From positions 1 to 62,007 of IMG/VR virus record IMGVR_UViG_3300042307_001090: DNA of 62,007 nt; one strand, given 5' to 3'. This document shows, one piece after another, positions 1 through 17,712 of this stretch; within the stretch, counting starts at the first letter, position 1, and each line of letters opens with the position of its first letter. The notes under the pieces are model-generated. The model saw only the letters and a program-made list of their open reading frames with translations. It had not been told where the DNA came from and did not search any database. The translations under genes and the position numbers were made by a program. This DNA comes from a virus. Taxonomy: Duplodnaviria; Caudoviricetes.

Positions 1-2
1 TC

Positions 3-3000
3 ATGGAAGCGCCTTCACTGGAAGAGAAGCAGGCTGTGATGAAGTCGATGTGGTCTGATGAGCAAATGCGGGTAATGAATGGCGTAGCTCAACAGGCGGC
101 TTTTGCTGATTTGGATGCTGACATGCAGGCGTCTTACATAGAGCAAGGTTCTGGTGAAGGTGCTCAGATTCGTCGTCTGGAAGATGGCATGTTTGAGGTG
201 ACGACTCCTGACGGTGAGTTATTGGATAACACAAGCAGTCCTGATGCGGCTTTGGAGTTGGCGCGTGATTGGAATGCTGCCGATCAACTGAACGAGACTG
301 CGGCCATTGAAGACATGATTGGTTATGTCGAGAGCTTCCAAGAAGCAGGGCAGTCGATTGAGCTGATGGACAAGTCAAAGACGCTTCAGGATCGCGTTGA
401 TGCGGGTGACTTCACGCAAGAAGAGGCTGATGGGATTGTGCAGCTTTACACGGAAATGGGGCGGCTGAATGAAGGGGCAACGCCTGGCTCTGTTTTGATT
501 ACGGGTGAGAATGAAGTGACCAAGTATGATGCGCGTCGGCGTATCGTGTCGGACGTTTCACGCATCTATGACGGTGCAAGTCCGCTGACTGTGGTGGAAG
601 AGCACGCTGAGGGTTATCTGAAGCGGCGTCTGGCTGATGGTTCTGTGACGCTTGAAGACATTGTGCGGTGGCGTAAGAGCACGGGGAGCACTGTAACGGA
701 TGCTTCAGAGCGTGCGCTGATTGAGTGGTTTAGTGAGCAGTCACAAGCCTATCTGGTGGGCAAGTCGAACGCTGAAGCGTTGCCTGCTACCTTTCGCCAA
801 TTCCTGAGCAAGCTGCGGAAGTATCTCGGTAAGATTCTTGATCTGTCTGTTCGGCTGATGGATCTGGAAGCGTCTGGCAAGATGGATGGCAACTTTAAGA
901 CTCACCTGGCGCGGTCGGTGGGGCTGGATCAAGCTCACATTGATGCTCAAATGCGGGCTGAAGAGGTGGGGCAAATGGATGGGCGTGGCACTGAGCTTAT
1001 GGGGTGGCTGAAGGGCAAGCTGCCGCATCCTGATACGGCAAAGGCTAACGGTGAGCAACTGGCGGGTGAGCTGGCTACGGTGTGGGAGGGATTTAAGTCA
1101 CCACAAGCGGCGCGTGCGTTCTTTGCGCCAAAGGGTGTTTACACGCCACTGGATCAACTGGCTGGCATGGCACGGGATGACGGGTTTCCTTTCGAGACGG
1201 CTGATGATCTGTTGAAAGCCATTGATTCGTCACTGCGCGGCGAAGAGGTGTTTGCTGATGCTGGCACTGGTGCGACGTTCAGCCTGAGCGATTCACGGGC
1301 AAAGCCTGAAGACGCAAGCAACGTCACGGTGCTGCCTGATGGTGCGCAACTGGTCGGGCCTACTACGTTCAGCTTAACAGCCTATCATGGCACTCCTCAC
1401 AAGGTGGACAAGTTCAGCATGGACAAGATCGGAACGGGCGAGGGTGCGCAGGCTTACGGCTGGGGGCTTTACTTCGCGGAGAATAAAGCGGTGGGCGAAG
1501 AATATAGGAGGAGTCTATCAGACAACATGCTTTCGCGTGATGTTCTAAAGGAGTATTTTAAGGAAGGGGCTATCATACCGTCATATGGCGGCATGGATCG
1601 CGTTGTTAAATTAAATCTCGGTGTAGATGTCGCTAATTGGAGTGTGGACGTTCAAGCGGTTGTGCCTGACGGAAAAGGGGGGTGGAAAAAGGAAAGTGAT
1701 TATGGCACTGGAATCCGTAACCATAGCACTTATCCAAGTCCCAAAAATTTAGATAAGTTGGGAATAAAGAGGGGCAACCTGTATACCGTAGAGCTACTAC
1801 CAGACGCCGATGACTTCCTTGACTGGGACAAGCCACTGAGAGAGCAAAGCGATAAGGTTAAGGAGGCTTTGGCTAAGGTGGACAACCGGCTAGTTAAGGC
1901 TTTGGCTGAAGTTGCTGCTGGTGGTCGTCCTAGGGACGTAGCGGTAAGCCATGGGGTTAACGTGATAGACCTTTACCTAGGTTCTGGCGGTGCAATGGTG
2001 CAAACGCTAGGTGGTGACGCTGCGGCATCTAAGACGCTGGCGGCTGCTGGCATTCCAGGAATCCGCTACTTAGACGGAGCAAGCCGTGGCAAGGGTGGCA
2101 CGTCCAACTACGTCATCTTTGACGAGTCGCTTGTGAAGATCATCGAAGAGAACGGCAAGAAGGTGGAGCAAGCGGGGGCTACGTTCTCGCCGGCTGACAT
2201 CAGCGCGAAGTGGGAAGCGCGTGGCATCAAAAACCAAGTGAGCGAAAAGGGCGGGGTAATTACTCTGTCTTCAATTCGCGTGTCTGACACTGAGCAGGCC
2301 CAGGGTCTTGGCACGGCAGCAATGAAGGAGTTGACGGCCTACGCCGACAAAAGCGGGCAAATGATCGCGCTAACACCTTCAGTTGATTTTGGGGCGTCTT
2401 CGGTTGGACGGTTGCGAGACTTTTACAAGCGATTTGGCTTCGTGGAAAACAAGGGCAGGAACAAAGACTTCCGAGTCAGGGAGACGATGATTCGTGAAGC
2501 CAAGAAGGGCGGGAAAGCTGACATCACAATGGGCATGGAGTCGCTTGACCGTGCAAATGAGATTAAGGCAGTGATGCGGAAGCATAAGATTGCTGCGCGT
2601 GTGGCTGCTGCGGATCACCAAGGGGAAGCGTTCTCACCTGAAATGCGTAAGGCTATGGAAGACCGGCTTTATCGCGTGGTTCCCAATAAGGAAACGGTGG
2701 CTGAAGCGTTAAAGGTGGTAACGGAGAAGGGTGTTGGTAATGCGTTGGAGCTTGTTCTGTCACGAACCAGTACGCTCACGCCCAACGTGCAGGTTGCTCT
2801 TGGAATGGCACTGATGGAGCATTTCAATGCCAAGAAGCAGTTTGAGAAGGCGATTGAAGTAGGTGAGCGAGTGAATGAGTTGGGCACTGAGTTGGGGCGT
2901 GGTGTTCAGGCGTTCAGTCTGTTGGGCAACGTGCTCGATACTCCTGAAAAGGCTCAAATCTTCCTGTCTAATAAGCTGAAGAGCTTGGAAGCGGCTTTGC

Positions 3001-5825
3001 GTGAGCGTAAGCCGGTCATTGACGCATCCAAAGAGGTGTTGGCTAACGTGCAGGAAGAGGCGTTGAAGCTTTTGGAGAAATGGCTTGATGAGATTAACGG
3101 GGTTTCTGGTAAGCCGATGGCTTCACGGAAGGCTGTTAGAACTGAGGATTTGCCTGATATTACCTTCGCACTGAGCCAAGACGTGCGGAAGTCAGGCATT
3201 GTGTCGGTTGTGGCTCGTATGCTCAAGGAATCGGGTGCTGCGGAGACGCGGAAGGCACTGGTTGAGAAGTACGGCGACAAGGTTGCTCCTCATGTGGCTG
3301 ACATTCTCATTGAGGCACAAAAGCAACTGACGGCAAAGGCTGCGGCTAAGAAGGCGAAGCCAAAGGTGGATAAGCCTGGCGCTGCTGCTGAGGATAAAGG
3401 CAAAGATCGCAGTGGGCCACGGATGAGCGAAGAGGAGATTGATAACGCACTGGCTGAGATTCACGCCACGGGGCGCAAGGTAGGCTTCCAAGATCAAATG
3501 GTTGCCATTGAAGAGCATTTCCAAGGTAAGCGTATGACTGATGCTCAGATTGAGGACACGCTTGCGCTAGGGCGTGCAATGGGCATCGGTGGCACTACTA
3601 CCACGCTGGAAGGGTTTGATGACCTGGTTAAGCGGTTTGAGGATGAGGTAATCAACCGGCTGAAGGTGAAAGGTCATGATGCGCCAAAGTCGCTGCGTGA
3701 TGCCGTGCGGAAGCTGTTTGAAACCAAGGGCGTCAAGTTTACCCGTGAGGACATTGCGCGGGTGTTCGCTGAGAAGTTCAAAGTGCCAAAGGCAACGGAG
3801 ACGCAAAATAAGCGCCTAGTGGAGTTGGCTGAGAACATTCGGAGCACGCCTGAGTTTTCGACTGCTCGGACTGATGCAACGGTGGAGCTGATGAACCACG
3901 TCAATGAAATCCTGAAGCCGGTTGATTGGGTGGATATTGGTTGGTCACTTTGGTATGCCAACGTGTTGAGCGGGTATAACACCCATTTCCGCAATCTTTA
4001 CGCGAATACCTTAGAGCAAATGGTTTCGCTTCCATTGGAAGCAATGCGGGCGAATCCAGTTAAGACGCTGCAACTGATGCGTGAAATGCTTTACGGGGTG
4101 AAGGCTGGGGCGTCTATCGGCCTAGCTGAAGCCAAGAATCAGTTGAAGACGGGTGAAGCGTCGGTGTTGCAAACTGAGTCGAACAAGTTTGGCAGTTCCG
4201 GCACGTTGGAGCGGGTTGACTTCGCTGGTGGGCAGGCAAATCCGTTCAACTGGCTGAAGGTAGTTGGTCGTGCTCTGCGTGCGGAAGATTTGTTTGCCTA
4301 CGCAACGGCTCAGGAAGCCAAGGCGCGCATGGTTGCGTGGGAAATGGCTGACGCAAAGGGGCTGATTGGTGCGGAGCGTCAAGCTGAGGTTGAAAAGCTC
4401 TTAAACGCCACGGATGAGCAGATTGGTGACTTCGCTGAACGGGCTGCGCGTGAGTGGGATGGTCTGAGCGATGAGCTGAAGGCCAAGGGCAATCGTGAAC
4501 AGTGGGAAGCGCGACGGGTGAAAGAGCTGCGTCTGTTGGAGCGTGATGGTGCTCTGATTGAGCGGGCGAGTGAGTTTGCGGCGCGTGCTACGTTCAATTA
4601 CAAGCCTGATGGGTTTGTTGGGCTTATGGCGAACAGCTTGATTGATGTAATGAATGGGCTTGGTCGTGCTGATACGACTGGACAAGCTGAGGTTGTGCAA
4701 AAGGCACTGATGACGGCTCCTAAGTTGGTGGTGCCGTTTGTTCGGATTGTCGCCAATGTGCTTAATCGTGGCATTGATTACACGGGCATGGGCATTGCAC
4801 GGTCTGCTTTTGAAACTAAGCGAGTTGGGGCGGCTGCTGGTAAGAATGGGTTTGTTGCCAAGTCAGCCGATGAGCGGGCAATGGAGTTGAAGCGGGGCAT
4901 TTTCGGCATTGTTGCCTTGGGTGTGCTGTCCAGCCTGGCGAATCCTGACGATCCTGAGGCAGAGATTCAGATTCACGGCTCTGGTGCTGGCTCACGCGAG
5001 AAGAACCAGGCGCTTAACGGGCCGCGGTGGATGCCTTATTCAATCGAGTTCAGGGGCAAAGAAGGGTCTAAGTTTTACACCTTCCAATACAGCCCTTTGC
5101 TCATGGGGCTGGCCTTGGTTGGTAATTACCACGATGCGAAGCGTTATCGTAAGCTCGATGAAAAGGATTTGACTGAGCGCCTGGCGGTGGCGGCTGCTGG
5201 TGTTGGTTCGGTGCTGCTCGATCAGTCGTTTCTTTCCAATGCTGCCGATCTTGTGAACATGTTTGGACGTGATGGGCAGGTGTCCCAAAATGCGCTTTAT
5301 TCGTTCATGGGTCGCACCTTCAATCCTTCCACGGTAGCGATTCCGTTTTCGTCACTGCTGCGTCAATTGGAGCGTGACTTTGATCCAGTGCAGCGGAGTA
5401 AACCGGACATCAAAGCGGCGTTGTTCTCCAATGTGCCGGTTGCAGCACGGGCGAATGATCCAGCGTTGGACATTCTTGGGGATGCGATTGCGAACAGGCC
5501 GTTTGACTGGTTGGCGCGTGCGTCTGTCGATGGCACTCCTGAAGCGCGGATTTACCGTGCGTTTGGGGCTAAAGACCTGGTTCCTACGTCTGTCTGGTCT
5601 TACAAAGGCAAGATGGAGCCGGAACAGTTCTACCAATTCACCAAGGAGCGCGGTGCGTTGTTGAAGGAGTCGCTGATGCGCAATGATGCGGCGTTCCTGA
5701 AGTTAATCGAATCTTCCAACGAAGAAGTTGCTGCGAAGATTCTCGAAAACCTTTCTCGTTCGGCTACGCAAATGGCGCGAGTTCGGGTCGGCTATTTCCC
5801 TGAAGTTAAAACCAAAACCAAATAA
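3..5825 (+). CDS. Large polyvalent (DarB/LPD-type) phage protein, probably virion-ejected; ADP-ribosyltransferase-like and GNAT-like domains; possibly 5' partial
   Basis: 1940 aa ORF. ART-like motifs YHGTPH..F...IGTGEGAQAYGWGLYFAE and YVIFD (~1377-2155). GNAT-like QGLGT...LRDFYKRFGF (~2190-2500). Long helical C-terminus. Directly precedes a podovirus-type fibre gene. Confidence 0.75.
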   Translation: MEAPSLEEKQAVMKSMWSDEQMRVMNGVAQQAAFADLDADMQASYIEQGSGEGAQIRRLEDGMFEVTTPDGELLDNTSSPDAALELARDWNAADQLNETAAIEDMIGYVESFQEAGQSIELMDKSKTLQDRVDAGDFTQEEADGIVQLYTEMGRLNEGATPGSVLITGENEVTKYDARRRIVSDVSRIYDGASPLTVVEEHAEGYLKRRLADGSVTLEDIVRWRKSTGSTVTDASERALIEWFSEQSQAYLVGKSNAEALPATFRQFLSKLRKYLGKILDLSVRLMDLEASGKMDGNFKTHLARSVGLDQAHIDAQMRAEEVGQMDGRGTELMGWLKGKLPHPDTAKANGEQLAGELATVWEGFKSPQAARAFFAPKGVYTPLDQLAGMARDDGFPFETADDLLKAIDSSLRGEEVFADAGTGATFSLSDSRAKPEDASNVTVLPDGAQLVGPTTFSLTAYHGTPHKVDKFSMDKIGTGEGAQAYGWGLYFAENKAVGEEYRRSLSDNMLSRDVLKEYFKEGAIIPSYGGMDRVVKLNLGVDVANWSVDVQAVVPDGKGGWKKESDYGTGIRNHSTYPSPKNLDKLGIKRGNLYTVELLPDADDFLDWDKPLREQSDKVKEALAKVDNRLVKALAEVAAGGRPRDVAVSHGVNVIDLYLGSGGAMVQTLGGDAAASKTLAAAGIPGIRYLDGASRGKGGTSNYVIFDESLVKIIEENGKKVEQAGATFSPADISAKWEARGIKNQVSEKGGVITLSSIRVSDTEQAQGLGTAAMKELTAYADKSGQMIALTPSVDFGASSVGRLRDFYKRFGFVENKGRNKDFRVRETMIREAKKGGKADITMGMESLDRANEIKAVMRKHKIAARVAAADHQGEAFSPEMRKAMEDRLYRVVPNKETVAEALKVVTEKGVGNALELVLSRTSTLTPNVQVALGMALMEHFNAKKQFEKAIEVGERVNELGTELGRGVQAFSLLGNVLDTPEKAQIFLSNKLKSLEAALRERKPVIDASKEVLANVQEEALKLLEKWLDEINGVSGKPMASRKAVRTEDLPDITFALSQDVRKSGIVSVVARMLKESGAAETRKALVEKYGDKVAPHVADILIEAQKQLTAKAAAKKAKPKVDKPGAAAEDKGKDRSGPRMSEEEIDNALAEIHATGRKVGFQDQMVAIEEHFQGKRMTDAQIEDTLALGRAMGIGGTTTTLEGFDDLVKRFEDEVINRLKVKGHDAPKSLRDAVRKLFETKGVKFTREDIARVFAEKFKVPKATETQNKRLVELAENIRSTPEFSTARTDATVELMNHVNEILKPVDWVDIGWSLWYANVLSGYNTHFRNLYANTLEQMVSLPLEAMRANPVKTLQLMREMLYGVKAGASIGLAEAKNQLKTGEASVLQTESNKFGSSGTLERVDFAGGQANPFNWLKVVGRALRAEDLFAYATAQEAKARMVAWEMADAKGLIGAERQAEVEKLLNATDEQIGDFAERAAREWDGLSDELKAKGNREQWEARRVKELRLLERDGALIERASEFAARATFNYKPDGFVGLMANSLIDVMNGLGRADTTGQAEVVQKALMTAPKLVVPFVRIVANVLNRGIDYTGMGIARSAFETKRVGAAAGKNGFVAKSADERAMELKRGIFGIVALGVLSSLANPDDPEAEIQIHGSGAGSREKNQALNGPRWMPYSIEFRGKEGSKFYTFQYSPLLMGLALVGNYHDAKRYRKLDEKDLTERLAVAAAGVGSVLLDQSFLSNAADLVNMFGRDGQVSQNALYSFMGRTFNPSTVAIPFSSLLRQLERDFDPVQRSKPDIKAALFSNVPVAARANDPALDILGDAIANRPFDWLARASVDGTPEARIYRAFGAKDLVPTSVWSYKGKMEPEQFYQFTKERGALLKESLMRNDAAFLKLIESSNEEVAAKILENLSRSATQMARVRVGYFPEVKTKTK

Positions 5826-5830
5826 AGATT

Positions 5831-8383
5831 ATGTCCGTAACAAATGAAACGTATCGCGTGCAGGCCACGCTTGCCACTGCCATTCAAGCAATTCCCGTCA
5901 CGTTCTACTTCTTGGAACAAGACGATTTGATCGTTTACCAAACGGTTGCAGGGGTGGATACGCTGATGGCGCTGAACACTAATTACACCTTAACGGGTGA
6001 GGGCGTGGAAGCAGGGGGTACGCTGACCACCATTGGCGGAACTGTGGGGGCTGTTTGGACTATCGCACGGGCGGATGCACTCACCCAGTCGGAAGAGTTC
6101 ATTTACAGCGGTTCTTTGGCACCTTCTGCGGTTGAGCGTGGTTATGACCGGCTGGCGATGCAGATTCAGCGCATTTACAGCATGGCGGCACGTTCGATTC
6201 GCTTACCTGTGACCAATGCGGAAGGTGGAGAGCTGGCATTGAATGACCGCAAGGGCACCATCTTGGGGTTTGATGCGAGCACTGGCGCGGTGGAGTTCAC
6301 CACTAAGCAAAGTCTTTTAGACGATGCGGCTGCTGCTGCTGAGGCGGCTGCTCAGCCTTTGGTGGATGCTGCTGAAGCGGCTAAAACTGCGGCTGAGCTG
6401 GCTGAAACCAATGCCGAGACTGCTGAAGCTAATGCGGTTGCTGCGGCTGGCACGGCTGCGGATGACGCTGCTGCTGCGGTGGTGGTGAGCTTGACTGCTG
6501 CTGTTCAGGTCTTGACTGACACTGCCACGCTTCAGGCTGGTTTGTCTGCTGATAGTGCAGCGGATTCAGAGCTTGCCAAGGAAGCTGCGCAAGTGGCTCA
6601 GGTTGCTGCGGAGTTAGCTGAAACTAACGCTGAAACTGCTGAAGCCAATGCAGAGCAAGCGGTGATTGATGCTGCTGCACAGTTGGCGTTGGCTACCACG
6701 CAAGCGAACAATGCTGCGGGTTCTGCGTCATCTGCCAGTGCGTCGGCTGCTTCTGCCGACGCCAGCGCCACGGCTGCGCTCAACGCCATCAGCCAAGCCT
6801 ACAAAGGCGAGCTGGCGGGCGCGAGCGTCCCCGCCACCAGCACGACCAACGGCGACACCTACCGCATCACCTCGGCAGGCACGAGCCAGGGCAAGACGTG
6901 GGTGGTTGGTGACGCCGCGATCTACAACGGAAGCTCGGGCCAATGGACGCAGCTCACGGGCTTTTACATTTACGCCGACGCCGCCGACATCGCCAGCAAA
7001 GCGGCGCTGATCGAGCGCGAGGGCCTGCGGTTCGACGGCACGGCGGGCGCGGTGATTGGTGGCGGCGGGATTCCGGCTGTGGGGACTGGGGATTTTACGG
7101 TCTGGTTTATGATAAATCCCGGTGCTGCCTTCATACCACGATTTTTATTTGGAGCTTCTGGGGCGTTTGGGTTGCAGGCATTAAACGTTAGCGGCGGGCT
7201 TGAAGTTGTGAAAGTCGGCATTGCTAATATTGGTTCATCTTCAATCGTGTTTAGTGCGGGCCTACCTACCATAATTCACTATGTTAGAAGCGCAGGGGTC
7301 GGCTCTTTTTACCGTAACGGATCATTTGTTGATTCGATTACAGATACCACGAACTACACTGCTAGTTCCACGTTCATAAATTCAGAAATTGATGGAGTTT
7401 CAAATGCCAGCGCCAACACGTATGCTCATTTTGGGCACGCCAACTACGCCCTAACCCAGTCCGAAATCACGGCCCTAATCGGTCGCGGTCTGGTCACGCT
7501 GCCGGAGCAACGCGGCGGGAGTATGGTGAGCCTAATCCCATCTGGCAACGGCGCATCACTTGGAGCAACCGACGCTAATAACCTCACCAATTGGAGCGCA
7601 TATTTAGCAACTGGAAGCGTTGGTTCAGGAACGCGAACGGGTGGCGCTGGATCGTATTATGCGAGGTTCACCCGAGCGGGAATTGATTTTAATGCGTGGT
7701 ATAATCCGGCCAAAATAGTTTCAGTTAATCAAAAATACCTGATTCGCTTTTGGGCTAGGGCATCGGTATCAGGAAATATAAATTTTCAGATGCGATCAGG
7801 CGGAGCAGGTAGCAGTACTAGCGCCGCTTTTGCCTTAACTACCGCATGGTCACAATTTAGCTACACTTGTGTAGTTACCGCAAATACTACGATTGATCGC
7901 CTATCATTTGATATGGCGGGCATTGGTATCAACGGGGACTATTTTGATATAGACGATTTTGAAGTAATCCCCCTCGGCACGCTATTCGAGCAGGACAGCG
8001 GCCAGCGCAACGGCGGCTACATGATCCGCGACACCTCAGGCAACGGTCGCCACCTCGAACTACCCGAAACAGGCGTCTCGATTAACGACCCCGCCGACAC
8101 GGGATTTATCGAGTACACCCGCACCACGGACGGCTATCTCCTCGGCGACCGCCGCGTGATCCCATCCACTGGCTACCTAGTCGAAGTCGTCGCCACCGGC
8201 AACGGCACCGTGACCCTTGGCGAATCCGCAGGCACGCCCGCCAACGTGTGCGCCTCGGTCACGCTCACCAGCACGCCGCAGATTCTTCCCATCCTAGTGA
8301 CCCAAACGAGCACGGGTAAGCTCTACTGCGACCTCGGCACCGCCACCACCGCCACCTTCAAGATCCGCCTCCGCGCCGTTTAA
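5831..8383 (+). CDS. Tail fibre/receptor-binding protein with T7 gp17-like N-terminal adaptor, Ala-rich stalk, and LamG-like and carbohydrate-binding-like domains (probably chimeric)
   Basis: N-terminus TFYFLEQDDLIVY...NYTLTG...ERGYDRLAMQIQ is typical of podoviral fibre adaptors. AETNAETAEANA repeats, then beta-rich domains. 7441-7684 is shared with the fibre at the window end. Confidence 0.8.
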   Translation: MSVTNETYRVQATLATAIQAIPVTFYFLEQDDLIVYQTVAGVDTLMALNTNYTLTGEGVEAGGTLTTIGGTVGAVWTIARADALTQSEEFIYSGSLAPSAVERGYDRLAMQIQRIYSMAARSIRLPVTNAEGGELALNDRKGTILGFDASTGAVEFTTKQSLLDDAAAAAEAAAQPLVDAAEAAKTAAELAETNAETAEANAVAAAGTAADDAAAAVVVSLTAAVQVLTDTATLQAGLSADSAADSELAKEAAQVAQVAAELAETNAETAEANAEQAVIDAAAQLALATTQANNAAGSASSASASAASADASATAALNAISQAYKGELAGASVPATSTTNGDTYRITSAGTSQGKTWVVGDAAIYNGSSGQWTQLTGFYIYADAADIASKAALIEREGLRFDGTAGAVIGGGGIPAVGTGDFTVWFMINPGAAFIPRFLFGASGAFGLQALNVSGGLEVVKVGIANIGSSSIVFSAGLPTIIHYVRSAGVGSFYRNGSFVDSITDTTNYTASSTFINSEIDGVSNASANTYAHFGHANYALTQSEITALIGRGLVTLPEQRGGSMVSLIPSGNGASLGATDANNLTNWSAYLATGSVGSGTRTGGAGSYYARFTRAGIDFNAWYNPAKIVSVNQKYLIRFWARASVSGNINFQMRSGGAGSSTSAAFALTTAWSQFSYTCVVTANTTIDRLSFDMAGIGINGDYFDIDDFEVIPLGTLFEQDSGQRNGGYMIRDTSGNGRHLELPETGVSINDPADTGFIEYTRTTDGYLLGDRRVIPSTGYLVEVVATGNGTVTLGESAGTPANVCASVTLTSTPQILPILVTQTSTGKLYCDLGTATTATFKIRLRAV
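7441..7684 (+). repeat. 244-bp direct repeat, copy 1 (copy 2 at 61764-62007)
   Basis: Read by eye; identical apart from 3 substitutions (7474/61797, 7483/61806, 7667/61990). Confidence 0.95.
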
Positions 8384-8387
8384 TCCC

Positions 8388-8636
8388 ATGCCACTTAATC
8401 CCGAGCCCATCCCATCGCGCTTTCCCTTGGTGCTTACCCGCACCAACGACGAAGCTGCCACGCCCATCCTCACCGCCACCGCCTGCTATCCCGAGGACGG
8501 CCCACTCGGCTCTGTCACCTTCGACACGCCGACCGACAAGGCACGCGGCGCGCTGTTTCTCGTTTCGCAAAACGGCAATGACCCCGAGGCGATCCCCGAG
8601 GCTAACCTGCTCGCGGCGATCAACGCCATCCTGTGA
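8388..8636 (+). CDS. Hypothetical protein (fibre-associated)
   Basis: 82 aa ORF 4 bp after the fibre stop; codon style matches neighbouring genes. Confidence 0.6.
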   Translation: MPLNPEPIPSRFPLVLTRTNDEAATPILTATACYPEDGPLGSVTFDTPTDKARGALFLVSQNGNDPEAIPEANLLAAINAIL

Positions 8637-8670
8637 AGCTTGCGCTCATCATCTGCATCGCCTTCTCGCC

Positions 8671-9210
8671 GTGAAAATCGCAGCACTTTTAGTCGCCCTT
8701 CTAATCTCCGCAGGCTGCACTAGCCAACGGTCAATCAGCGTTCCGCGCGTTCCCGATTGGATTCCCGCGAAGGCCGTCACGGTTTCCGAGGTGATCGCCA
8801 GATCCAGACAACTCGTGCACGTGTCCCCTCAGCTTAGCGACGGGGCATTCACCACAGTTAGCCGCGAGTGGCTTGACCTTGCTTTGCCTTGGTCGTGGGA
8901 GTTTGCCATTGCCACCGGCCTTGCCTACGTGCCCGAGTCATTTGACTGCGACAAATTCGCCAAAGCATTCTCTCTATCCGCTGAAATCTCCGCAGCTCGC
9001 GCAGGCGTAAAAGCGCAGCCGCTCGTCGCGCGAATTTACGTCATGCAGGTAAAAGCATGGGGCGGCATACCGATTGGCGGGGCCCACGCGCTCATCGCCG
9101 TAGCAACCGATGCCGGGGTAATTATTGTCGAACCACAAACAAGGGCCACCATTTCGCTAGACGAGTATCCAAATCGCGACCACATTTTCGCGGTCAAAAT
9201 TGGCGGGTAA
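8671..9210 (+). CDS. Lipoprotein with putative papain/transglutaminase-like Cys-His-Glu fold
   Basis: GTG start gives signal peptide MKIAALLVALLISAG-C (lipobox). Motifs FDCDKFA, AHALI, IIVEPQ. Confidence 0.6.
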   Translation: MKIAALLVALLISAGCTSQRSISVPRVPDWIPAKAVTVSEVIARSRQLVHVSPQLSDGAFTTVSREWLDLALPWSWEFAIATGLAYVPESFDCDKFAKAFSLSAEISAARAGVKAQPLVARIYVMQVKAWGGIPIGGAHALIAVATDAGVIIVEPQTRATISLDEYPNRDHIFAVKIGG

Positions 9211-9221
9211 ATTATTTGTAA

Positions 9222-9485
9222 ATGTCGAACGACACAAAAAACTCAATCGCATGGTGGATCGACACCGTGTGGAAACTCTCAGTTCCGCTCGGCATCGTTG
9301 CTGTGTTTTACTTAAAGGCGACGTTCGCCACCGGCGAAGACGTGCGGGCGCTCTCTGACCGGATCACGAAATCAGAGACCGCTATTCTCTTGCTCACCGA
9401 AAAGCAGAAGGACGACATCCGTCAGGATGATCTCATTAAGGACCACGAGATCCGGCTCAGAAACCTTGAGCGCGGGGTGCGTTAA
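9222..9485 (+). CDS. Single-TM coiled-coil protein, holin-like candidate
   Basis: One hydrophobic helix (LSVPLGIVAVFYL) followed by coiled coil ending HEIRLRNLE. Confidence 0.5.
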   Translation: MSNDTKNSIAWWIDTVWKLSVPLGIVAVFYLKATFATGEDVRALSDRITKSETAILLLTEKQKDDIRQDDLIKDHEIRLRNLERGVR

Positions 9486-9496
9486 TTTTCATCATC

Positions 9497-9952
9497 ATGA
9501 ACATGTCCAGCGCATACTTCCCGCGCCCGCTCAATATGCGCGTGCATCCAGACAAGCCGCGCGTTGCTATTCTAATGACCCCCTTCACGTTTAAGTCTCC
9601 GTCGCTGGGGATCATTCGCGTGGAGGCGGGGTTTGATACCGACTACGCCAGCGTACCCCGCGTCTTTTGGGCAATTTATCCGCCCGACGGCGAATATCGC
9701 GCCGCCGCTGTGATCCACGACTTTCTCTATTGGGCGCAGTCCTACACGGAGGGACACCCTCCAATCGTTCGCGAGCAGGCTGACACCGTTTTTCTTGAGG
9801 CGCTTTACGCCTGTGGTGTTCCTTGGCTGCGGCGTCACATTCTCCATAAGTCTGTTCGCTTGGGCGGCTGGGTAGCGTGGAACAAACGCGCCAAGGAAAT
9901 AGCCGCCGAGCGCAACACCACTTCGCAACCACAACAAGAGACCAACGCATGA
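9497..9952 (+). CDS. DUF1353 family protein
   Basis: Motif GFDTDYASVPR...AAVIHDFLY...ADTVFLEAL...VRLGG. Confidence 0.85.
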   Translation: MNMSSAYFPRPLNMRVHPDKPRVAILMTPFTFKSPSLGIIRVEAGFDTDYASVPRVFWAIYPPDGEYRAAAVIHDFLYWAQSYTEGHPPIVREQADTVFLEALYACGVPWLRRHILHKSVRLGGWVAWNKRAKEIAAERNTTSQPQQETNA

Positions 9953-10284
9953 AACGCATCGCCACAACCATTGCCATCATCCCCGCCGTGCTGGCCTTTA
10001 CCGGCTGCGCTACCTCCGAAAAACTCGACCTGCCCAACATCACCGCCAAGGAGGTTTGGGTGAGCCATCAGAACCCGCTTTTCAACGTCAACCTGCAGGC
10101 CGATAACCTAGTTGACCACGGCGACCGCGTCACCGCCGACCGCATCACCTACGAGCGCGGTGGTCGCATCACCTCGACCACGATCCGCGTTGAGGGTTAT
10201 CGCCGCAACAAACAACCCGCCGAGGCCGCGCAGGCCGTTTCCGCTCCCGCGCAGATCGCCACGCCTCCCCCTTTTACCAAATGA
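9949..10284 (+). CDS. Small lipoprotein
   Basis: ATG at 9949 overlaps the upstream stop (ATGA). Signal MKRIATTIAIIPAVLAFTG-C. Confidence 0.65.
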   Translation: MKRIATTIAIIPAVLAFTGCATSEKLDLPNITAKEVWVSHQNPLFNVNLQADNLVDHGDRVTADRITYERGGRITSTTIRVEGYRRNKQPAEAAQAVSAPAQIATPPPFTK

Positions 10285-11084
10285 ATCCCATCCTTAATCT
10301 CAACGCCACCTTCACCGGGGCAGTCGTAACGACCTTCGCCAGCGCTGAGCCCCCGGGCTGGCGACTCCTCAACGGCAGCACCATCGGCAGCGCCAGCTCT
10401 GGCGCCACCTACGCAAACGCAGCGGCAAAGAACCTCTTCACGTTCCTCTGGACGAACCTGTCCAACACCGTTGCTCCGGTGAGTTCCGGCCGTGGTGCCT
10501 CGGCCGCCGCCGACTGGACGGCCAACAAAACCCTCACGCTGCCCGACGCACGCGGGCGCTCGATCATCGGCGTAGGCACCGGCCTCGCGGTTGAAACGGT
10601 CACCAGCCAGACCGCCGCATCAAACGCCATTCCCGTCGCGTCCAACATCGCCAAATGGAACACCGGCATGCAGGTCACCGTGTCCGGCGCCTCGGGCTTT
10701 AGCGGCCTGACCAACGGCACCTGGTTCATCTTTCGGCAGGACGCCACCAGCGTGAAGTTTGCGAGCACATTGGCGAACGCGCAGAACGCGGCCGTTGCGA
10801 CGATCACCGGCACCGGCTCTTGCGTTATCACTCACACCCTCGCGGCTCGCAAACTCGGGGAATTTGGCGGCGAGGAGAATCACGCGATGAGTGCGTCGGA
10901 AATGCTCGCGCATAACCACGGCATCCTGAGTGCCGGTAGCGATACCGTGACGGATACACATTATGTAACCGGCAACGGCGGGACCACAAACACCCGCACC
11001 GACCTAAATACCGCCACTGGCGGCAACGTGCCGATGAACAACATGCAGCCGTTCCTCGCGCTCAACTACGTCATCAAGCTCTAA
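10281..11084 (+). CDS. Phage tail collar domain protein
   Basis: PPGWRLLNG...LPDARGRSIIG, GGEENH, HNH and NNMQPFLALNYVIKL collar motifs. Confidence 0.85.
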   Translation: MNPILNLNATFTGAVVTTFASAEPPGWRLLNGSTIGSASSGATYANAAAKNLFTFLWTNLSNTVAPVSSGRGASAAADWTANKTLTLPDARGRSIIGVGTGLAVETVTSQTAASNAIPVASNIAKWNTGMQVTVSGASGFSGLTNGTWFIFRQDATSVKFASTLANAQNAAVATITGTGSCVITHTLAARKLGEFGGEENHAMSASEMLAHNHGILSAGSDTVTDTHYVTGNGGTTNTRTDLNTATGGNVPMNNMQPFLALNYVIKL

Positions 11085-11108
11085 CTCAGTCAAGGAAAGC
11101 GCGGCGCA

Positions 11109-11151
11109 GGAAAGACCCGCACAAGACCTGCGCCGCTGCCTGACTTAACCT
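11109..11151 (+). promoter_or_regulatory. Late promoter motif GGAAAGACCCGCACAAGAC-N18-TAACCT upstream of tail sheath
   Basis: Exact 19-mer found four times, always intergenic before structural operons. Here it sits in a perfect 10-bp inverted repeat (11101-11136). Confidence 0.75.
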
Positions 11152-11176
11152 AACCACAAACCAACCGGAATCCACT

Positions 11177-12682
11177 ATGCCCGAAACATTCCTACACGGC
11201 GTCGAAGTTGTCGAGATCACCGACGGTCCTCGCCCCATCCAAACTGTTCGCAGCTCCATCATCGGCATCGTGGGAACCGCCCCCGACGCTCAGGCTGGCG
11301 TCGCTGCCACCCTGACCCTCGGCACCAGCACGGCCTCGCTGGCATTTACCGCCGTCGCCGCAGACGCCACGGGCAACGATGTCTCCATTGCGATCATCAA
11401 GCCCGCGACGAATAACGCGACCCTTGCCGTGACCGTCACTGGTAAGGCGGTCACGATCTCGCTCGCCACCAACGGCAGCGCCGTCGCTACCTCGACAGCC
11501 GCGCAGGTCAAGACCGCCTACGACCTCGTCGCCGGCGCAGTTGCCCTTGCTACTGTTGCCACCTCGGGCGGCGGTGCTGGCACCGTTGCCACCTCGGTTG
11601 AGAAGTTCCTCACCGGTGGCCTTGATGCTGCGTTCCCGCTCAACACCCCGGTCCTCGTCACCCCCGGCGACGGCCAGGTGAACCGCCTCGGCGAATCCGG
11701 CACCCTGTACCGCGCCATCGACAATATCTGGAAGCAGGCCGGCGCCGTGCTCGTTGTCGTCCGCGTCGCGCAGGTCACCTCCGACACCAGCGCTGGCACC
11801 ATCTCCAACGTAGCCGGCGACTCTATCACCCGCACCGGTGTGTTTGCCTTGCTCAACGCCGAGTCCACCGTTGGTTTTGCGGCTCGCATCTTGATCGCCC
11901 CGGGCTTCACCCAGGAGACCGCGGTCCTCACCAACTACATTTCGGTCGCGAACTCGATCAAGGGATTCATTTTTGCCGACGGTCCGAACAGCACCGATGC
12001 CGCTGCGATCGCCTACGGTGGCGGCTTCGGCAGTCGCCGCGTCAAGCTCGTTGACCCGCGCGTGAAGGTGCTCCGTGGCACCGACATCGTGGTTGAGCCC
12101 GCTTCGTCCTTCTTTGCTGGCATTCAGGCGCAGATCGACAACACGCTCGGCTTCTGGTGGTCCGAGTCCAATAAGGAAATCCTCGGCATCGTCGGCCTTG
12201 CCCGCCCGATCGACTTCGTGCTCGGCGATTCCAACAGTCGCGCCAACCTGCTCAACGAACAGAACGTCGCGACCATCATCCGTTACGACGGGTATCGCAC
12301 CTGGGGCAATCGCACCCTGTCCTCGGATTCGAAGTGGGCCTTCGCCTCCGTGGTCCGCACCGCTGACATCCTCAACGAGTCGATCCTGCGCGCTCACATG
12401 TGGGCCGTGGATCGCAACATCACCAAGACCTACTTGGAGGATGTCACCGAGTCCGTGAACGCCTACATGCGCAGCCTGATCGCCCAGGGCGCGCTTATCG
12501 GCGAACAGGACGTTTCCAAGAAGGTCAACGTCTGCTACCCGGACCCCGACCTCAACAGCCCGGCGAACATTTCGGCCGGCAAGGTCTATTTCAATTTCGT
12601 GTTCACCACGCCTTACCCGGCCGAGCGGGTGACCTTCAGCAGCGAACTCAACACCAACGGCCTCGTCGACCTCCTCTCCTAA
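11177..12682 (+). CDS. Contractile tail sheath protein (P2 FI-like)
   Basis: FLHGVEVVE...IGIVGTAP start; ANLLNE, GYRTWGNRT, VRTADI motifs. Confidence 0.95.
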   Translation: MPETFLHGVEVVEITDGPRPIQTVRSSIIGIVGTAPDAQAGVAATLTLGTSTASLAFTAVAADATGNDVSIAIIKPATNNATLAVTVTGKAVTISLATNGSAVATSTAAQVKTAYDLVAGAVALATVATSGGGAGTVATSVEKFLTGGLDAAFPLNTPVLVTPGDGQVNRLGESGTLYRAIDNIWKQAGAVLVVVRVAQVTSDTSAGTISNVAGDSITRTGVFALLNAESTVGFAARILIAPGFTQETAVLTNYISVANSIKGFIFADGPNSTDAAAIAYGGGFGSRRVKLVDPRVKVLRGTDIVVEPASSFFAGIQAQIDNTLGFWWSESNKEILGIVGLARPIDFVLGDSNSRANLLNEQNVATIIRYDGYRTWGNRTLSSDSKWAFASVVRTADILNESILRAHMWAVDRNITKTYLEDVTESVNAYMRSLIAQGALIGEQDVSKKVNVCYPDPDLNSPANISAGKVYFNFVFTTPYPAERVTFSSELNTNGLVDLLS

Positions 12683-12694
12683 ATCTAAAGCACC

Positions 12695-13201
12695 ATGAGC
12701 GCCGCACGCGACATCCTCAAAAACTTCAATATCTTCGTCGATGGCCGGGGCTACGCCGGCAACATCGACAGCATCCAGCTCCCTGCGCTCAACGTGCAGG
12801 AAGAAGACTTCCGCGCCGGCGGCATGGACGCCTCGATCGGCCTGGACATGGGCATGGAAAAGCTGGAGCTTTCCTTTGTCCTCTCCAAGTACGACCGCGA
12901 CGCCCTCGCGCAGTGGGGCCTTGGCAATGCCGAGACCGCCGTCACTCTGCGCGGCGCCCTTGAGTCGCGCGACGGCACCGTCACCGCGGTTGTCGTCAAC
13001 GCCCGGGGTAACTTCAAGGGCGTCGAGTTCGGCGAGTGGGCCCCCGGCTCCAAGTCGTCCATCACGTTCAACGCCACGCTGACGTATTACAAGTACACCC
13101 AGGGCGGCACCGTGGTGCACGAGATCGACGTCATCAACATGATCCGCCGCATCGGTGGCGTTGATCGCCTCGCCGCTCAGCGCGCCGCCATCGGCCTGTA
13201 A
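12695..13201 (+). CDS. Tail tube protein (P2 FII-like)
   Basis: LKNFNIFVDG..YAG...FRAGGMD...DMGMEKL...EIDVINMIR..GGVD. Confidence 0.95.
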   Translation: MSAARDILKNFNIFVDGRGYAGNIDSIQLPALNVQEEDFRAGGMDASIGLDMGMEKLELSFVLSKYDRDALAQWGLGNAETAVTLRGALESRDGTVTAVVVNARGNFKGVEFGEWAPGSKSSITFNATLTYYKYTQGGTVVHEIDVINMIRRIGGVDRLAAQRAAIGL

Positions 13202-13249
13202 CGCGCAGGCATCGCCGCACTCGTCGTCACTACCTGCATATAAACCGAA

Positions 13250-13513
13250 ATGTCCTCGCTCACCACCATCAAACTCGATCACCCTGTAAAGGTCGCCGGC
13301 GTTGAAGTCGCTGAACTTCGTTTTCGCCGCGCGTCCGTGCGTGACATCAAGATCGCCCGGGCCGGCGGAAAAGCCGATGACTTCGATCTGGCCGTGACCC
13401 TTGCCGCCAACCTAGCCGAGATCACCCCCGACGATGTGCTCAACCTCGATGTCGCCGACTTCAAGAAGGTGGAGGTCCTGATCGCTGGTTTTTTGGGGTC
13501 GTCCAAGGACTGA
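13250..13513 (+). CDS. Tail assembly chaperone (P2 gpE / Mu gp41-like)
   Basis: Between tube and tape measure genes; LRFRR, LDVADF motifs. Confidence 0.85.
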   Translation: MSSLTTIKLDHPVKVAGVEVAELRFRRASVRDIKIARAGGKADDFDLAVTLAANLAEITPDDVLNLDVADFKKVEVLIAGFLGSSKD

Positions 13514-13662
13514 GCTTAGACGACCTGCGTCGGGCTGAGATTCAACTCGCGTCACACACCGGCTGGGGGTGGCGCGAGATTCAAGACATGGGGTTCGATG
13601 AGTTTCATGCGTACCTGAAAATCCTAGCCGAAGAAGTAAAGCCCTCTCACCATGGCCGATAA
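13487..13662 (+). other. Programmed -1 frameshift site (GGTTTTTTG) and gpE'-like extension
   Basis: T6G at 13489-13495. The -1 frame is open to TAA at 13662 and encodes LASHTGWGWREIQDM, resembling P2 gpE'. Confidence 0.8.
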
Positions 13663-15691
13663 AAAGTTCAGCGCAGTCATCTCAATCGGCGCCGAACTCG
13701 GCGCGAGTTTCCGCGCGACCTTTGGCGGGCTCGACTCGCGTATTAAGTCGGTGGGCGCTTCCCTGCGCGGGCTGAACGACCAGCAGAAGGGGATTACCGG
13801 CTACGCGAAGGCGCTTGAGGCGGTCAACAAAGCCCGCGTGGCCGTGGTGGATGCGGCCAAGACCGGCGATCGCACTCAGTACGACAAGGCCCGGGCCGCG
13901 CTGACAAAGCAGACCGTAGCGCTTGATAAGCACCGCGAGTTTATGCGCGCCGCCGGCATTGACACGTCCAACCTATCGGGGGAAATGGAGCGGCTGGGCC
14001 GCGAAGGCGCGCAGGCTACCGCTCGCCTCAGCGCGCTCGGCAAACTCAAGGGCGCGACGGCCGAGCTCGGCGCGTCATTCAGGAAGCTGCGTGAGGACGC
14101 CGCCGCCGCCGGCATTGCCGTTGCAGCGGTCGGATACTCGGCGTGGCGGGTTATCGCGGGCTTCGCGAACATGGCTGACGAGGCCAGCGAGACCGGCTCC
14201 GCTCTTGGCCTGACCGCTCAGGAATTGCTCGGGCTGCGCTACGCCGGCGAGCGCGTGGGCATCGAGGCGGGCAAGATGGACGCCGCCCTCAACAAGCTCA
14301 ACCAGCAGCTCGCCGACGCCCAGAACGGCAGCAAGGAAGCCTCGAAGTCTTTTGACGAGCTCGGCCTTGACGCCGAAATGCTCGCATCTATCCCGGCATC
14401 CGAGCGCATGAACTTGCTCGCAGACGCTTTCCGCAATGTGCGCGACCCGCTCGATCGCACGCGCCTTGCAACGGACCTGTTCGGCGCCAAGGCTTACAAA
14501 ATGGCGAATGTCCTAGGGCTCGGCGCCGAGGGCCTGCGCGAATTGCGCAAGGAGGCCAAGGACACCGGATACATTCCGAGCGAAGAACTGATAAAACGCG
14601 CGGAGCAATTCGACTCCTCGTTCGGCGCCTTTAAGGGCACGCTCATCGGTATTCGAAACGAGATCGGCGGCGCGCTCCTGCCCATCGTGAATCGTTTCCT
14701 GACCTTCGCGACCGAGCACTCCCTGTTGCTCAAGGCTGCGGTGGCTGGGTTCGCCTTGGTTATGGGCGGCGTCGCTGTCGTAGCGGTAGCCCGGCTAGGC
14801 CTCACGGCCGTCACCACCGTAAAGCAGGTCGGCGCCCTTATCACCGCGATGCGCACCCTCGGCGCGCTGGAAATGGTAGGCAGCGCTGGCGGGCTCGGCT
14901 CGCTGGTCGCCATGCTGAAGAACGCCGTGCCGTGGATCACCGGCCTGGCAGGCACATGGCTGCCCGCGCTGGCGACCTCAATCAAAGCAGTCGGCCTTGC
15001 ATTCGCGATCGCGTTCGGGGCTACGCCTATCGGCTGGATCGTCGCAATCGGCGCCGCTATCGTCGGGCTCGGCATCCTTATCTACAAGTCATGGCAGCCC
15101 ATCAAAACTTTTCTGGGCGGGATGTGGACCGGATTTACAGAGGGCTTACGCGAGGCTTTAGGCGGCATCATGACCGAGCTGCGCCCGATCGGCGAAGCGC
15201 TTGCAGTCGTATTCTCTCCGCTTCTTTGGGCGCTCGGCAAGCTGCGCGATGCTTTCACTTGGCTGATCTCTCCGTTTAAGCAGACTAATGAGCAAATGCA
15301 GGCGACGGCCGGAATCGGGCGCACGCTTGGCCGGGTACTCGCCGACACCGTGCTGGCCCCAATTAACCTCATTGCCGGCGCGCTGCGCATGGTCCGCGTA
15401 GGGCTCGCCGCCGTTGGCATTGGCAGCAAGCCGGCCGCCAGTGAAGGCGGTGGGGATTACGCTACCTCCGGCGCCGCGCTGCCTTCGCCGTCGACGCGAT
15501 TGCCTTCCGTGCCGGTCGCCGCGGCATCCCGCAATTCATCGTCGGCTACCACCAACAACAGCATTGTCGTCAACGCTGCGCCCGGGATGGACGAACGCGC
15601 ACTGGCCGACGAGGTCATGCGAAGGATCCGCACGCAGCGCGAGCAAGAGCAACGAGGTGCGCTTTACGACAACACCATGCCCGCTTACTAA
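13652..15691 (+). CDS. Tail tape measure protein
   Basis: 679 aa Ala/Gly-rich helical protein with PIGWIV/W-repeat region, in P2 gene order. Confidence 0.9.
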   Translation: MADKKFSAVISIGAELGASFRATFGGLDSRIKSVGASLRGLNDQQKGITGYAKALEAVNKARVAVVDAAKTGDRTQYDKARAALTKQTVALDKHREFMRAAGIDTSNLSGEMERLGREGAQATARLSALGKLKGATAELGASFRKLREDAAAAGIAVAAVGYSAWRVIAGFANMADEASETGSALGLTAQELLGLRYAGERVGIEAGKMDAALNKLNQQLADAQNGSKEASKSFDELGLDAEMLASIPASERMNLLADAFRNVRDPLDRTRLATDLFGAKAYKMANVLGLGAEGLRELRKEAKDTGYIPSEELIKRAEQFDSSFGAFKGTLIGIRNEIGGALLPIVNRFLTFATEHSLLLKAAVAGFALVMGGVAVVAVARLGLTAVTTVKQVGALITAMRTLGALEMVGSAGGLGSLVAMLKNAVPWITGLAGTWLPALATSIKAVGLAFAIAFGATPIGWIVAIGAAIVGLGILIYKSWQPIKTFLGGMWTGFTEGLREALGGIMTELRPIGEALAVVFSPLLWALGKLRDAFTWLISPFKQTNEQMQATAGIGRTLGRVLADTVLAPINLIAGALRMVRVGLAAVGIGSKPAASEGGGDYATSGAALPSPSTRLPSVPVAAASRNSSSATTNNSIVVNAAPGMDERALADEVMRRIRTQREQEQRGALYDNTMPAY

Positions 15692-15694
15692 GTT

Positions 15695-16087
15695 ATGGCC
15701 GAATCACCCGATGTCATGATGGTGCTCGGCACCTACGCTTTTGCACTTAGCTCTGCCGCTTATCAGGAGTTCACGCGCTCTTCCGCTTACACCTGGGCGG
15801 AACAGCCGCTCATTGGCGGGCGCCCGGCCTTGCAGTTCACTGGCATTGACGCCGAGACCGTTACGCTGCGCGGAACGATTTACCCGACGTTTCGCGGAGG
15901 GTTACGCCAGGTCGATGCAATGCGAGCCCTCGCTGGCCGCGGCGCTCCGCTTCGGCTTGTGAGCGGTCTCGGCTCCAATCTCGGCGCATGGGTGATCGAG
16001 AAAATCAGCGAGGGACACACTGTTTTTTTCTCCGATGGAACGCCGAGGAAGATTGATTTTGACCTCACGTTGAAACGCTACGCATAA
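15695..16087 (+). CDS. Tail protein (P2 gpU-like)
   Basis: MMVLGTYAF...AYQEFTR...W...PALQFTG...G.WVIE...PRKIDF.LTL. Confidence 0.9.
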   Translation: MAESPDVMMVLGTYAFALSSAAYQEFTRSSAYTWAEQPLIGGRPALQFTGIDAETVTLRGTIYPTFRGGLRQVDAMRALAGRGAPLRLVSGLGSNLGAWVIEKISEGHTVFFSDGTPRKIDFDLTLKRYA

Positions 16088-16095
16088 CCCTAACC

Positions 16096-16302
16096 ATGGC
16101 CGCAACCTACTTCACCAAGGACCGCGACACCGTGGACTCAATCTGCCACGCCTACTATGGGCGCACGTCCGGCGCGGTTGAGCAGGTACTGGAAGCCAAC
16201 GTTGGCCTGGCCGACTACGGGCCCGAGCTGCCGGCCGGCGTGCTGATTGCCCTGCCTGACATCGCCGAGCCGAGCACGCAGGTGGTGCGGCTGTTCGACT
16301 AA
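16096..16302 (+). CDS. Tail protein X (P2 gpX-like)
   Basis: DTVDSICHAYYG....VEQVLEANVGLA..GPELPAG..I.LP. Confidence 0.9.
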   Translation: MAATYFTKDRDTVDSICHAYYGRTSGAVEQVLEANVGLADYGPELPAGVLIALPDIAEPSTQVVRLFD

Positions 16303-16312
16303 TTTTTCAACC

Positions 16313-16546
16313 ATGAATGCTTATTTAGTCCTCAAGCAGCGCGAAGGCTCGGCATCGGTCGAGAGTCAAGGGATTTTTTCAACTCTGGAAAAGGCAAAGG
16401 CTGCGTGCAAAACCGCCGAGGATATTGTGATGACTCACGCCCTTGATCAGGAGCTTCCGCAAGATCGCGTCTTTTGTTGCGACTGCTATCACCCATTATC
16501 CGGAACAGTCATGCGCGCTGGCACGACTGAGTGGGTTCCCGCATGA
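16313..16546 (+). CDS. Hypothetical protein inserted between gpX and gpD
   Basis: 77 aa from ATG 16313; stop overlaps the gpD start (ATGA); more AT-rich than its neighbours. Confidence 0.55.
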   Translation: MNAYLVLKQREGSASVESQGIFSTLEKAKAACKTAEDIVMTHALDQELPQDRVFCCDCYHPLSGTVMRAGTTEWVPA

Positions 16547-17565: not shown

Positions 17566-17684
17566 GATGAACCACCGGGCCGTTGCTTTGCATCTGCGCT
17601 GCCTGCGAGTTCACCTCGGGCGCGCATGGTTTGCTGCGCGCGGGGCATGGCGGTCAATGTGGCAGCGTGCCGGTGAATAGGCGC

Positions 17685-17712
17685 AAAAAAGCCTCACTGA
17701 TTGAGGTGAGGC
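17685..17712 (-). terminator. Rho-independent terminator of the leftward operon
   Basis: Stem GCCTCAC/GTGAGGC (17691-17712) with A6 on its left, i.e. U6 on the minus strand, between convergent operons. Confidence 0.65.

Follow-up and report, generated by a model that had tools for sequence, protein, structure and literature searches.

Whether a virus record catalogued as complete stands for one genome or for parts of two is the question raised by the IMG/VR record IMGVR_UViG_3300042307_001090 (Duplodnaviria; Caudoviricetes). The entire record of 62,007 bp, called the window below, is classed as linear and rated 100% complete, and its main parts as annotated here are given on its plus strand. 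The initial annotation had read the left end as a podovirus-like fragment joined to a myovirus genome through a shared tail-fibre sequence, and had preferred an assembly chimera of two co-occurring phages to a real recombinant. This preference was supported by a composition break, a truncated gene, the synteny of a related myovirus, sequencing runs that hold the podovirus part only, and a step in depth. We conclude, with a probability of about 0.87, that the record is a chimeric metagenome contig, in which a podovirus fragment is joined to a complete myovirus through a shared fibre block.

The frequencies of C and T at third codon positions (C3 and T3) separated the left end from the remainder of the window. 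The giant open reading frame (ORF) at 3–5825 had a C3 of 0.18 and a T3 of 0.30, compared with 0.34–0.62 and 0.10–0.23, respectively, in 15 myovirus genes other than the fibre genes, confirming the claim that positions 1 to about 6760 favor T-ending codons and the rest C-ending ones. A tetranucleotide profile, which had been proposed as a check, gave correlations (r) to the myovirus backbone of 0.41 and 0.56 for the two 3.5-kb intervals of 1–7000 vs. 0.85–0.965 for the other 15 of 15, the reference being slightly circular in that it contains those same 15 intervals, and the discontinuity at 1 to about 6760 was sharp. Similarly, the strand-specific trinucleotide r to the myovirus was 0.22–0.32 in the podovirus part (1–6760) and 0.77–0.82 on the myovirus side, climbing to 0.82 at 8384–9496. 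The shift to C-ending codons occurred near 6761, and segment 6761–7000 already had a C3 of 0.61; therefore, the native composition of the podovirus stops near 6760, well upstream of the near-identical block described below.

Positions 1–7440 represent the 3′ portion of the structural module of a podovirus, namely a giant virion-protein gene followed by a podovirus-anchored fibre. The 3′ part of the giant gene (1–5825; 1,940 codons) is truncated at the contig end. Its ORF was 39–52% identical to residues 610–2266 of a 2,267-aa ORF in the IMG/VR contig L006, and since the alignment begins with window residue 29 at residue 610 of the homologue, about 580 codons are missing from the N-terminal end of the window gene, where the contig stops. 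Genes of L006, a podovirus contig, specify a protease or scaffold and the major head protein, tail tubular proteins A/B and an internal virion protein; downstream of these lies the giant ORF, ahead of the fibre gene. The window ORF matched PHROGs 10691 and 11975, the function of both being unknown. It had been called a polyvalent protein, a concept of giant multi-effector virion proteins that reportedly goes back to Iyer et al. in 2017. The giant gene is indeed present, while the label "polyvalent" derives solely from sub-threshold Pfam matches to ART-PolyVal (27.6 bits, cut-off 31.2; 40 of 140 profile positions) and GNAT (20.0 bits, cut-off 20.7).

The fibre ORF (5831–8383; 850 codons as assembled) comprises, in order, an N-terminal anchor (~5831–6310), an Ala-rich shaft, a pre-LamG module (~6790–7000), linker 1, a LamG-like domain (~7100–7440), linker 2, a CBM-like middle domain and a conserved C-terminal domain. 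Its N-terminus matched PHROG 1640 (residues 1–128), gp18 of the podovirus BcepC6B (31% over 150 aa, the sole match in a tblastn search of GenBank phages), the L006 fibre (37% over the first 155 aa) and the solved podoviral tailspikes Dpo31/Dpo36 in the PDB (E 7e-6), but gave no match to Pfam Phage_T7_tail at E ≤ 0.01. Of the proposed "T7-type fibre adaptor", the podovirus anchor type was thus retained and the T7 family lacked Pfam support; by these similarities, the N-terminus would work like a podovirus fibre anchor. Megablast of 1–8400 and of 44000–62007 against GenBank phages returned no match.

The right end of the window leads back into this fibre gene. Positions 61764–62007 repeat 7441–7684 directly over 244 nt at 99% identity, with a start-to-start spacing of 54,323 and 3 of 244 positions mismatched, at 7474 (C/G), 7483 (T/A) and 7667 (T/C). 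Linker 2 and the middle domain both begin within the left copy. Because the window is the whole record and not an excerpt of a larger sequence, the repeat truly reaches the contig end. The two copies lie in the ORFs 5831–8383 and 60823–62007, the latter open-ended, and both start at codon position 3. As 60823–62007 is exactly 395 codons long and the phases match, closing the circle leaves the fibre frame intact (395 + 233 codons), which makes myovirus fibre 2 consist of 60823–62007 plus 7685–8383, about 628 codons. The 395 codons encode a P2 gpH-type N-terminus (PF12571, E 4e-27), linker 1, an own LamG-like domain, linker 2 and the beginning of the shared middle domain. Repeat, spacing, Pfam match and frame hence all confirmed the earlier proposal of a 54,323-bp circle with its own gpH-type fibre. 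Further, a second, weaker direct repeat was found upstream (7001–7131 vs. 61339–61469, 78%; 85% for the subregion 7001–7099), and about 300 nt between the weak and the strong repeats were diverged, being of near-equal length in both copies.

The remainder of the record is a complete myovirus of about 54,323 bp, circular or circularly permuted, that combines a lambda-like head with a P2-like tail. The contractile tail module falls into P2 order once the circle is closed (baseplate V/W/J/I-like proteins, gpH-type fibres, sheath, tube, tape measure and gpU/gpD-like proteins); the succession of fibres, then chaperone and sheath, arises solely if the right end joins 7685 onward. Two relatives, L033 (from a 57.7-kb contig) and L034, were colinear with the window myovirus through baseplate J, baseplate I, fibre 1, fibre 2, DUF1353, tail protein, sheath, tube and tape measure, at 57–90% amino acid identity (fibre 1, 77%; DUF1353, 65%; tail protein, 77%; sheath, 90%). 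No sequence resembling window 1–7000 was present in L033/L034, where fibre 2 runs straight to DUF1353 and sheath. The N-terminal 124 aa of fibre 2 were 84% identical to those of the L033 fibre 2 (a 630-aa open frame; database entry P0033, 619 aa). After the same 124 aa, the L033 protein (7968–9857) continues into a C-terminal domain that, by eye, looks SGNH/GDSL-hydrolase-like.

Part of 2500–12400 was contained in 24 lake-water runs, and the Logan contigs of four of them (X1, X2, X3 and X7) were compared with window 1–20000, depth being the word depth of a contig, one figure per contig. In X3, one 28,615-nt contig spanned window 1–8392 with 22 differences and extended 18.5 kb past base 1, and it diverged fully after 8392, 9 nt beyond the fibre stop codon. 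Only one difference fell in 7441–8283, and 18 of the 19 tabulated ones lay at 8284–8362. Over 8672–20000, X3 showed a depth of 0–1.7 from 19–22-nt scraps, plus a 258-nt piece of depth 2.1 (10047–10304); a 266-nt piece of depth 2 lay at 8499–8764, just beyond the divergence point. X7 held podovirus pieces as far as 8216, with a depth of 0–1.4 in the myovirus part. The missing contig cover in X3 and X7 was used only alongside the divergence of the X3 contig at 8392, absence alone proving nothing. Consistently, the 850-aa database protein P0001 was identical to the window fibre at 846 of 850 residues, three of the four differences falling in the last 18 residues, where X3 also differs, and it was found on contigs of at most 36.9 kb, that is, of podovirus size. 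The X3 contig and P0001 together indicated that the podovirus exists on its own with a complete fibre. One of the two genomes is accordingly a podovirus with an 850-codon fibre ending at 8383 and other DNA after it.

X1, which may be the source sample of the record, had depths of 7.49–9.22 over 1–7470, 25.2 over 7441–7512, 17.1 over 7483–8283 and 13.5 over 8532–20000. The coverage step that the initial annotation had suggested looking for was therefore found, as contig depths differed across the join and were roughly additive on the shared block. The X1 contigs broke at 7441 and 7483, and its unitigs chained through 8254–8369, 8340–8558 and 8532–20000. In X2, a 600-nt contig started exactly at 7441 and carried all three variants of the right end through 8040. 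Taken with the single X3 difference, the X1 depth and the X2 haplotype define a block at 7441–8283 that is common to podovirus and myovirus at an identity of at least 99%. The following stretch, 8284–8558, comprises the final 100 nt of the fibre gene and the DNA downstream in their myovirus version: it is unlike X3 and P0001, and its strand-specific trinucleotide usage correlated with that of the myovirus (r = 0.62) and not with that of the podovirus (r = −0.18); likewise, the small-ORF stretch at 8388–9485 gave 0.82 to the myovirus vs. 0.04 to the podovirus. The fibre DNA held to be shared is hence near-identical as claimed, and it extends beyond the 244 nt that recur at the window end, reaching to about 8283. 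That two morphotypes carry near-identical receptor-binding DNA was upheld as well, over about 0.84 kb at no less than 99%.

These results showed a composition break, a near-identical repeat with a second entry (X1 and X2 contigs starting at 7441) and a depth step, which are among the features by which an assembly chimera is recognized. The fibre block 7441–8283 is truly common to both phages, the join is the artefact, and the crossover of the chimera lies somewhere within 7441–8283. A de Bruijn-type assembler would have exited the podovirus into the fibre block (7441 to ~8283), near-identical in the co-occurring myovirus, left the block on the myovirus side, and circled the 54.3-kb myovirus genome once; assembly would then have halted on re-entering the block from the myovirus fibre-2 gene (61764–62007). 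Both this path and the exact crossover point are our reconstruction. The podovirus and the myovirus presumably share a host.

Some points weigh against an assembly chimera. The depths come from contigs and not from raw reads, and X1, if it is the source sample, is not independent. In addition, the X1 linking unitigs 8254–8369 and 8340–8558 had a depth of about 6, under both flanks (17 and 13.5), so that at least one further allele is needed and the exact crossover is left open; a second allele of the fibre-2 3′ end within the same X1 myovirus population is suggested. The myovirus without the podovirus was seen in none of the four runs, and for the myovirus alone there is just the synteny of L033/L034. 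No protein or contig in the database searches joined the myovirus N-terminus of fibre 2 to this C-terminus in one piece. Finally, a real cointegrate would yield a contig of the same shape. In such a recombinant, the circular myovirus would have recombined with the podovirus in the 0.84-kb block, for instance during co-infection, to give podovirus-left, block, myovirus, block and podovirus-right. The contig has exactly this predicted structure, with a direct repeat flanking the myovirus genome, and short-read graphs are unable to phase a 0.84-kb identical block. However, the X1 depths on the two sides are unequal (7.5–9.2 vs. 13.5), X3 and X7 contain the podovirus part without the myovirus and the X3 contig enters other DNA after 8392, the related myovirus has no such insert, and a molecule of about 90 kb would overfill either capsid, as sized by us at ≤37 kb and 54 kb. 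We therefore regard a cointegrate as very unlikely and, at most, as a minor replicative intermediate.

The lack of any independent contig or protein that joins the two fibre ends, together with a right copy of just 244 nt at the contig end, would also fit a block genuinely present in one phage only, the other copy (e.g., the last 244 nt) being a misassembly or an end artefact. This is highly improbable, as the right copy's own haplotype (G/A/C) recurs in the X2 contig from 7441, in X1 the block is about as deep as both phages added together and the unitigs chain it into the myovirus backbone, and the DNA directly after the fibre stop has myovirus composition. Moreover, the homology begins upstream at linker 1 (85%), with diverged LamG domains between and the frame kept, which argues for natural mosaicism and not for an overlap artefact. 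Two near-identical repeats, both in fibre genes, might further recall programmed fibre diversification within one genome, through a diversity-generating retroelement or an invertible, shufflon-type switch. Both forms were rejected and carry next to no probability: the repeats are direct and 54 kb apart, the mismatches (C/G, T/A and T/C) are not adenine-specific, neither a reverse transcriptase nor an invertase was found among the 60 window ORFs scanned against PHROGs, and the two parts occur apart in other samples. An assembly chimera thus remains the preferred explanation of the record.

The shared block belongs, as one cassette, to a modular family of lake-phage fibres that consist of linker 1, a LamG-like domain, linker 2, a variable middle domain and a conserved C-terminal domain. 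A module-by-module comparison was made of 32 database proteins that share the C-terminal 461 residues of the window fibre. Linker 1 ("LIEREGLRFDGT...GTGDF"; 7001–7131 in the podovirus fibre, with the weak repeat copy in fibre 2) was matched at 55–100% identity in 29 of the 32, and linker 2 ("NYALTQSEITALIGRGLVTLPEQRGGSM") was found in all 32, mostly at 75–100%. The C-terminal domain (~138 aa) also matched in 32 of 32, at 90–98% in eight and mostly at about 45–50% in the rest (range 32–73%). Laminin_G_3 matches at E ≤ 0.001 were obtained for 14 homologues, eight of them at the Pfam cut-off, and the window fibre itself gave a weak CBM_4_9 match at residues 583–693 (20.5 bits vs. a cut-off of 25.9). 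The pre-LamG segment 6761–7000 recurs at 55–81% in 10 other homologues, for example P0002, P0003, P0008 and P0012. The middle domain (residues 566–712) was restricted, among the 32 homologues and fibre 2, to P0001 and fibre 2, indicating that the near-identity is specific to this podovirus–myovirus pair. In detail, the LamG domains of the two window fibres are 35% identical and set between conserved linkers, a pattern that would represent natural mosaicism with its joints in the linkers. The two linkers flank swappable modules and probably serve as joints for homologous recombination.

The N-termini of the homologues varied, with podovirus anchors in 3 of 32 (P0001, P0011 and P0012), weak BppL_N-type matches in four, and many short forms. 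A P2-type anchor together with this C-terminal family was found in window fibre 2 alone; P0033, P0035 and P0036, which were examined for their PF12571-type anchor, had unrelated C-termini. In X1, one 410-nt contig joined 7527 to 7973, bringing linker 2 up to the beginning of the C-terminal domain and omitting or replacing the 445-nt middle domain, which suggests a third fibre allele in that sample, similar to P0004 and P0006 with their short middle domains. No relative was obtained for the fibre C-terminal part (7001–8383) searched as protein against IMG/VR, for the fibre 2 protein against metagenome contigs, or for the fibre-family alignment against GTDB genomes, and a 42-nt exact word from the shared block occurred in no other contig among viral or metagenome contigs. 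Since the family was not found in GTDB genomes, there is no prophage-based clue to the host.

An AlphaFold model of residues 391–850 had a mean predicted local distance difference test score (pLDDT) of 61 and a predicted template modelling score of 0.37, with the LamG part at a pLDDT of about 70–93 and a fair C-terminal domain. About 150 residues of the modelled LamG part matched trans-sialidase lectin and pentraxin domains with a root-mean-square deviation of 3.6–4.0, and a fold search with the whole 460-residue model returned only generic lectin/jelly-roll matches (template modelling scores 0.16–0.27), so that no specific ligand can be named. A carbohydrate (glycan)-binding role of the fibre block is inferred as likely.

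A bolder reading takes the linkers as the dedicated joints of a freshwater fibre "construction kit", with LamG, middle and C-terminal modules swapped continuously across morphotypes and the podovirus–myovirus exchange ongoing instead of a single past event; we put it forward tentatively and think it rather unlikely. If it were true, the swapping would span fibres with podovirus or P2-type myovirus anchors, BppL_N-bearing fibres and short stand-alone forms, coexisting alleles would be expected per sample, as would sample-specific block haplotypes common to both phages, and the chimeric contig would mark a live recombination hot spot at which rare true cointegrates could exist.

The other genes of the myovirus agree with its assignment. 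Downstream of the fibre cassette, the first gene in common with the related myovirus is the DUF1353 gene, or tail assembly chaperone-like gene (9497–9952; PF07087, E 2.7e-24; PHROG 1158), whose counterpart in L033 lies at 10127–10540. It is followed by the tail genes at 10281–17565 (PHROGs 8763, 23, 55, 28, 76 and 52; colinear with L033/L034), which encode a tail protein, the sheath (11177–12682), the tube (12695–13201), the tape measure (13652–15691), a gpU-like (15695–16087) and a gpD-like protein (16531–17565). The middle region holds replication, recombination and methylase genes, and the head side includes two ParB-like genes. Packaging, head, connector and baseplate genes occupy 44518–59391 (PHROGs 57, 15, 21, 617, 9992, 43, 6/4226 and 48), with small and large terminase, portal, a protease–capsid fusion and baseplate V/W/J/I-like proteins; the head genes are lambda/HK97-like, so that the myovirus as a whole does not belong to the P2 lineage. 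Fibre 1 (59394–60809; 471 aa) has a P2 gpH-type N-terminus (PF12571, E 8e-55) and a Gp10_C domain (PF21939, E 1.4e-29). Relatives of the sheath in GTDB genomes, at 41–72% best-segment identity across Pseudomonadota (Pseudoalteromonas, Castellaniella, Methylobacter, Bartonella and others), were too distant for naming a host.

Between fibre 2 and DUF1353, three small ORFs of 82, 210 and 87 aa (8388–9485) had no PHROG or Pfam match and no tblastn counterpart in L005–L036, L033/L034 included; possible identities are fibre accessory genes specific to the cassette, or a moron. The protease–capsid fusion is a single 628-aa ORF (51567–53453) with a head-maturation-protease-like N-terminus and the major capsid protein (PHROGs 617, 4523 and 80), and an ORF of 499 aa (49649–51148), flanked by the portal and capsid genes, matched neither PHROG nor Pfam. 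A small ORF in the head–tail connector block (54795–55112) matched nucleoside 2-deoxyribosyltransferase/MazG-like families (PHROG 355, E 5e-30). The ParB-like genes (42060–44101; 211 and 469 aa) are adjacent and directly upstream of the small terminase, and none of the 60 ORFs scanned was recognized as an integrase. A 52–73-nt element with an internal palindrome (TTGCGC...GCGCAA type) was observed at the 5′ ends of early-region genes (22626–22698, 25128–25200 and 35937–35988), with two direct copies (73%) and one inverted (73%), and may be a regulatory or leader motif.

Read as an assembly chimera, the "complete" 62-kb record combines a myovirus of 54.3 kb with 7.4 kb from a second phage, and genome size, gene content, host prediction and clustering taken from the untrimmed record will be wrong. 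The real circular myovirus genome is recoverable by trimming at the repeat. At the same time, the artefact exposes a very recent exchange of a fibre cassette between a podovirus and a myovirus of the same lake, whose genomes and codon use are otherwise unrelated, and the fibre family should be useful for studying the movement of receptor-binding modules between phages and for modular fibre engineering.

The podovirus side resembles the BPP-1/BcepC6B-like podoviruses (Ryyoungvirus; NC_005887), in which large virion proteins are followed by a fibre with a similar anchor, the order also seen in L006 and in window 1–8383. BcepC6B differs in the low identity of gp18 noted above, in having no single ORF of about 2,300 aa (gp15–gp17 are 2.1–2.6 kb each) and in its other fibre C-terminus. 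On the myovirus side, tail-fibre mosaicism among P2, Mu, P1, lambda and the T-even phages was reportedly described by Haggard-Ljungquist et al. in 1992. The present case is similar in that a gpH-type N-terminus serves as the baseplate anchor and C-terminal receptor-binding segments are exchanged among unrelated phages. Those phages, however, are enterobacterial and mostly similar at the protein level, while here one partner is a podovirus and the joints are two short conserved linkers.

In virome assemblies, regions of high similarity between different viruses are reported to lead assemblers to join genomes into inter-genome chimeric contigs (PMC3901335, PMC4247695). Compared with the chimeras described there, the window is a concrete catalogued case, rated complete and linear, and its shared region is an exchanged fibre cassette. 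Exchange of fibre modules across morphotypes is already established, and the window is a further instance. The Alteromonas schitovirus A5 and myovirus V22 have homologous tail-fibre C-terminal modules in otherwise unrelated genomes, which was taken as horizontal transfer between morphotypes infecting the same host (Gonzalez-Serrano et al., 2023; PMC10579305). Similar to A5 and V22, a podovirus and a myovirus here share a fibre module. In contrast, A5 and V22 are isolates with a known host, a cognate chaperone and tested function, while the present pair are uncultivated freshwater genomes with LamG/CBM-like domains, in which no cognate chaperone was identified and the block is near-identical even in DNA, at 99% or more over about 0.84 kb.

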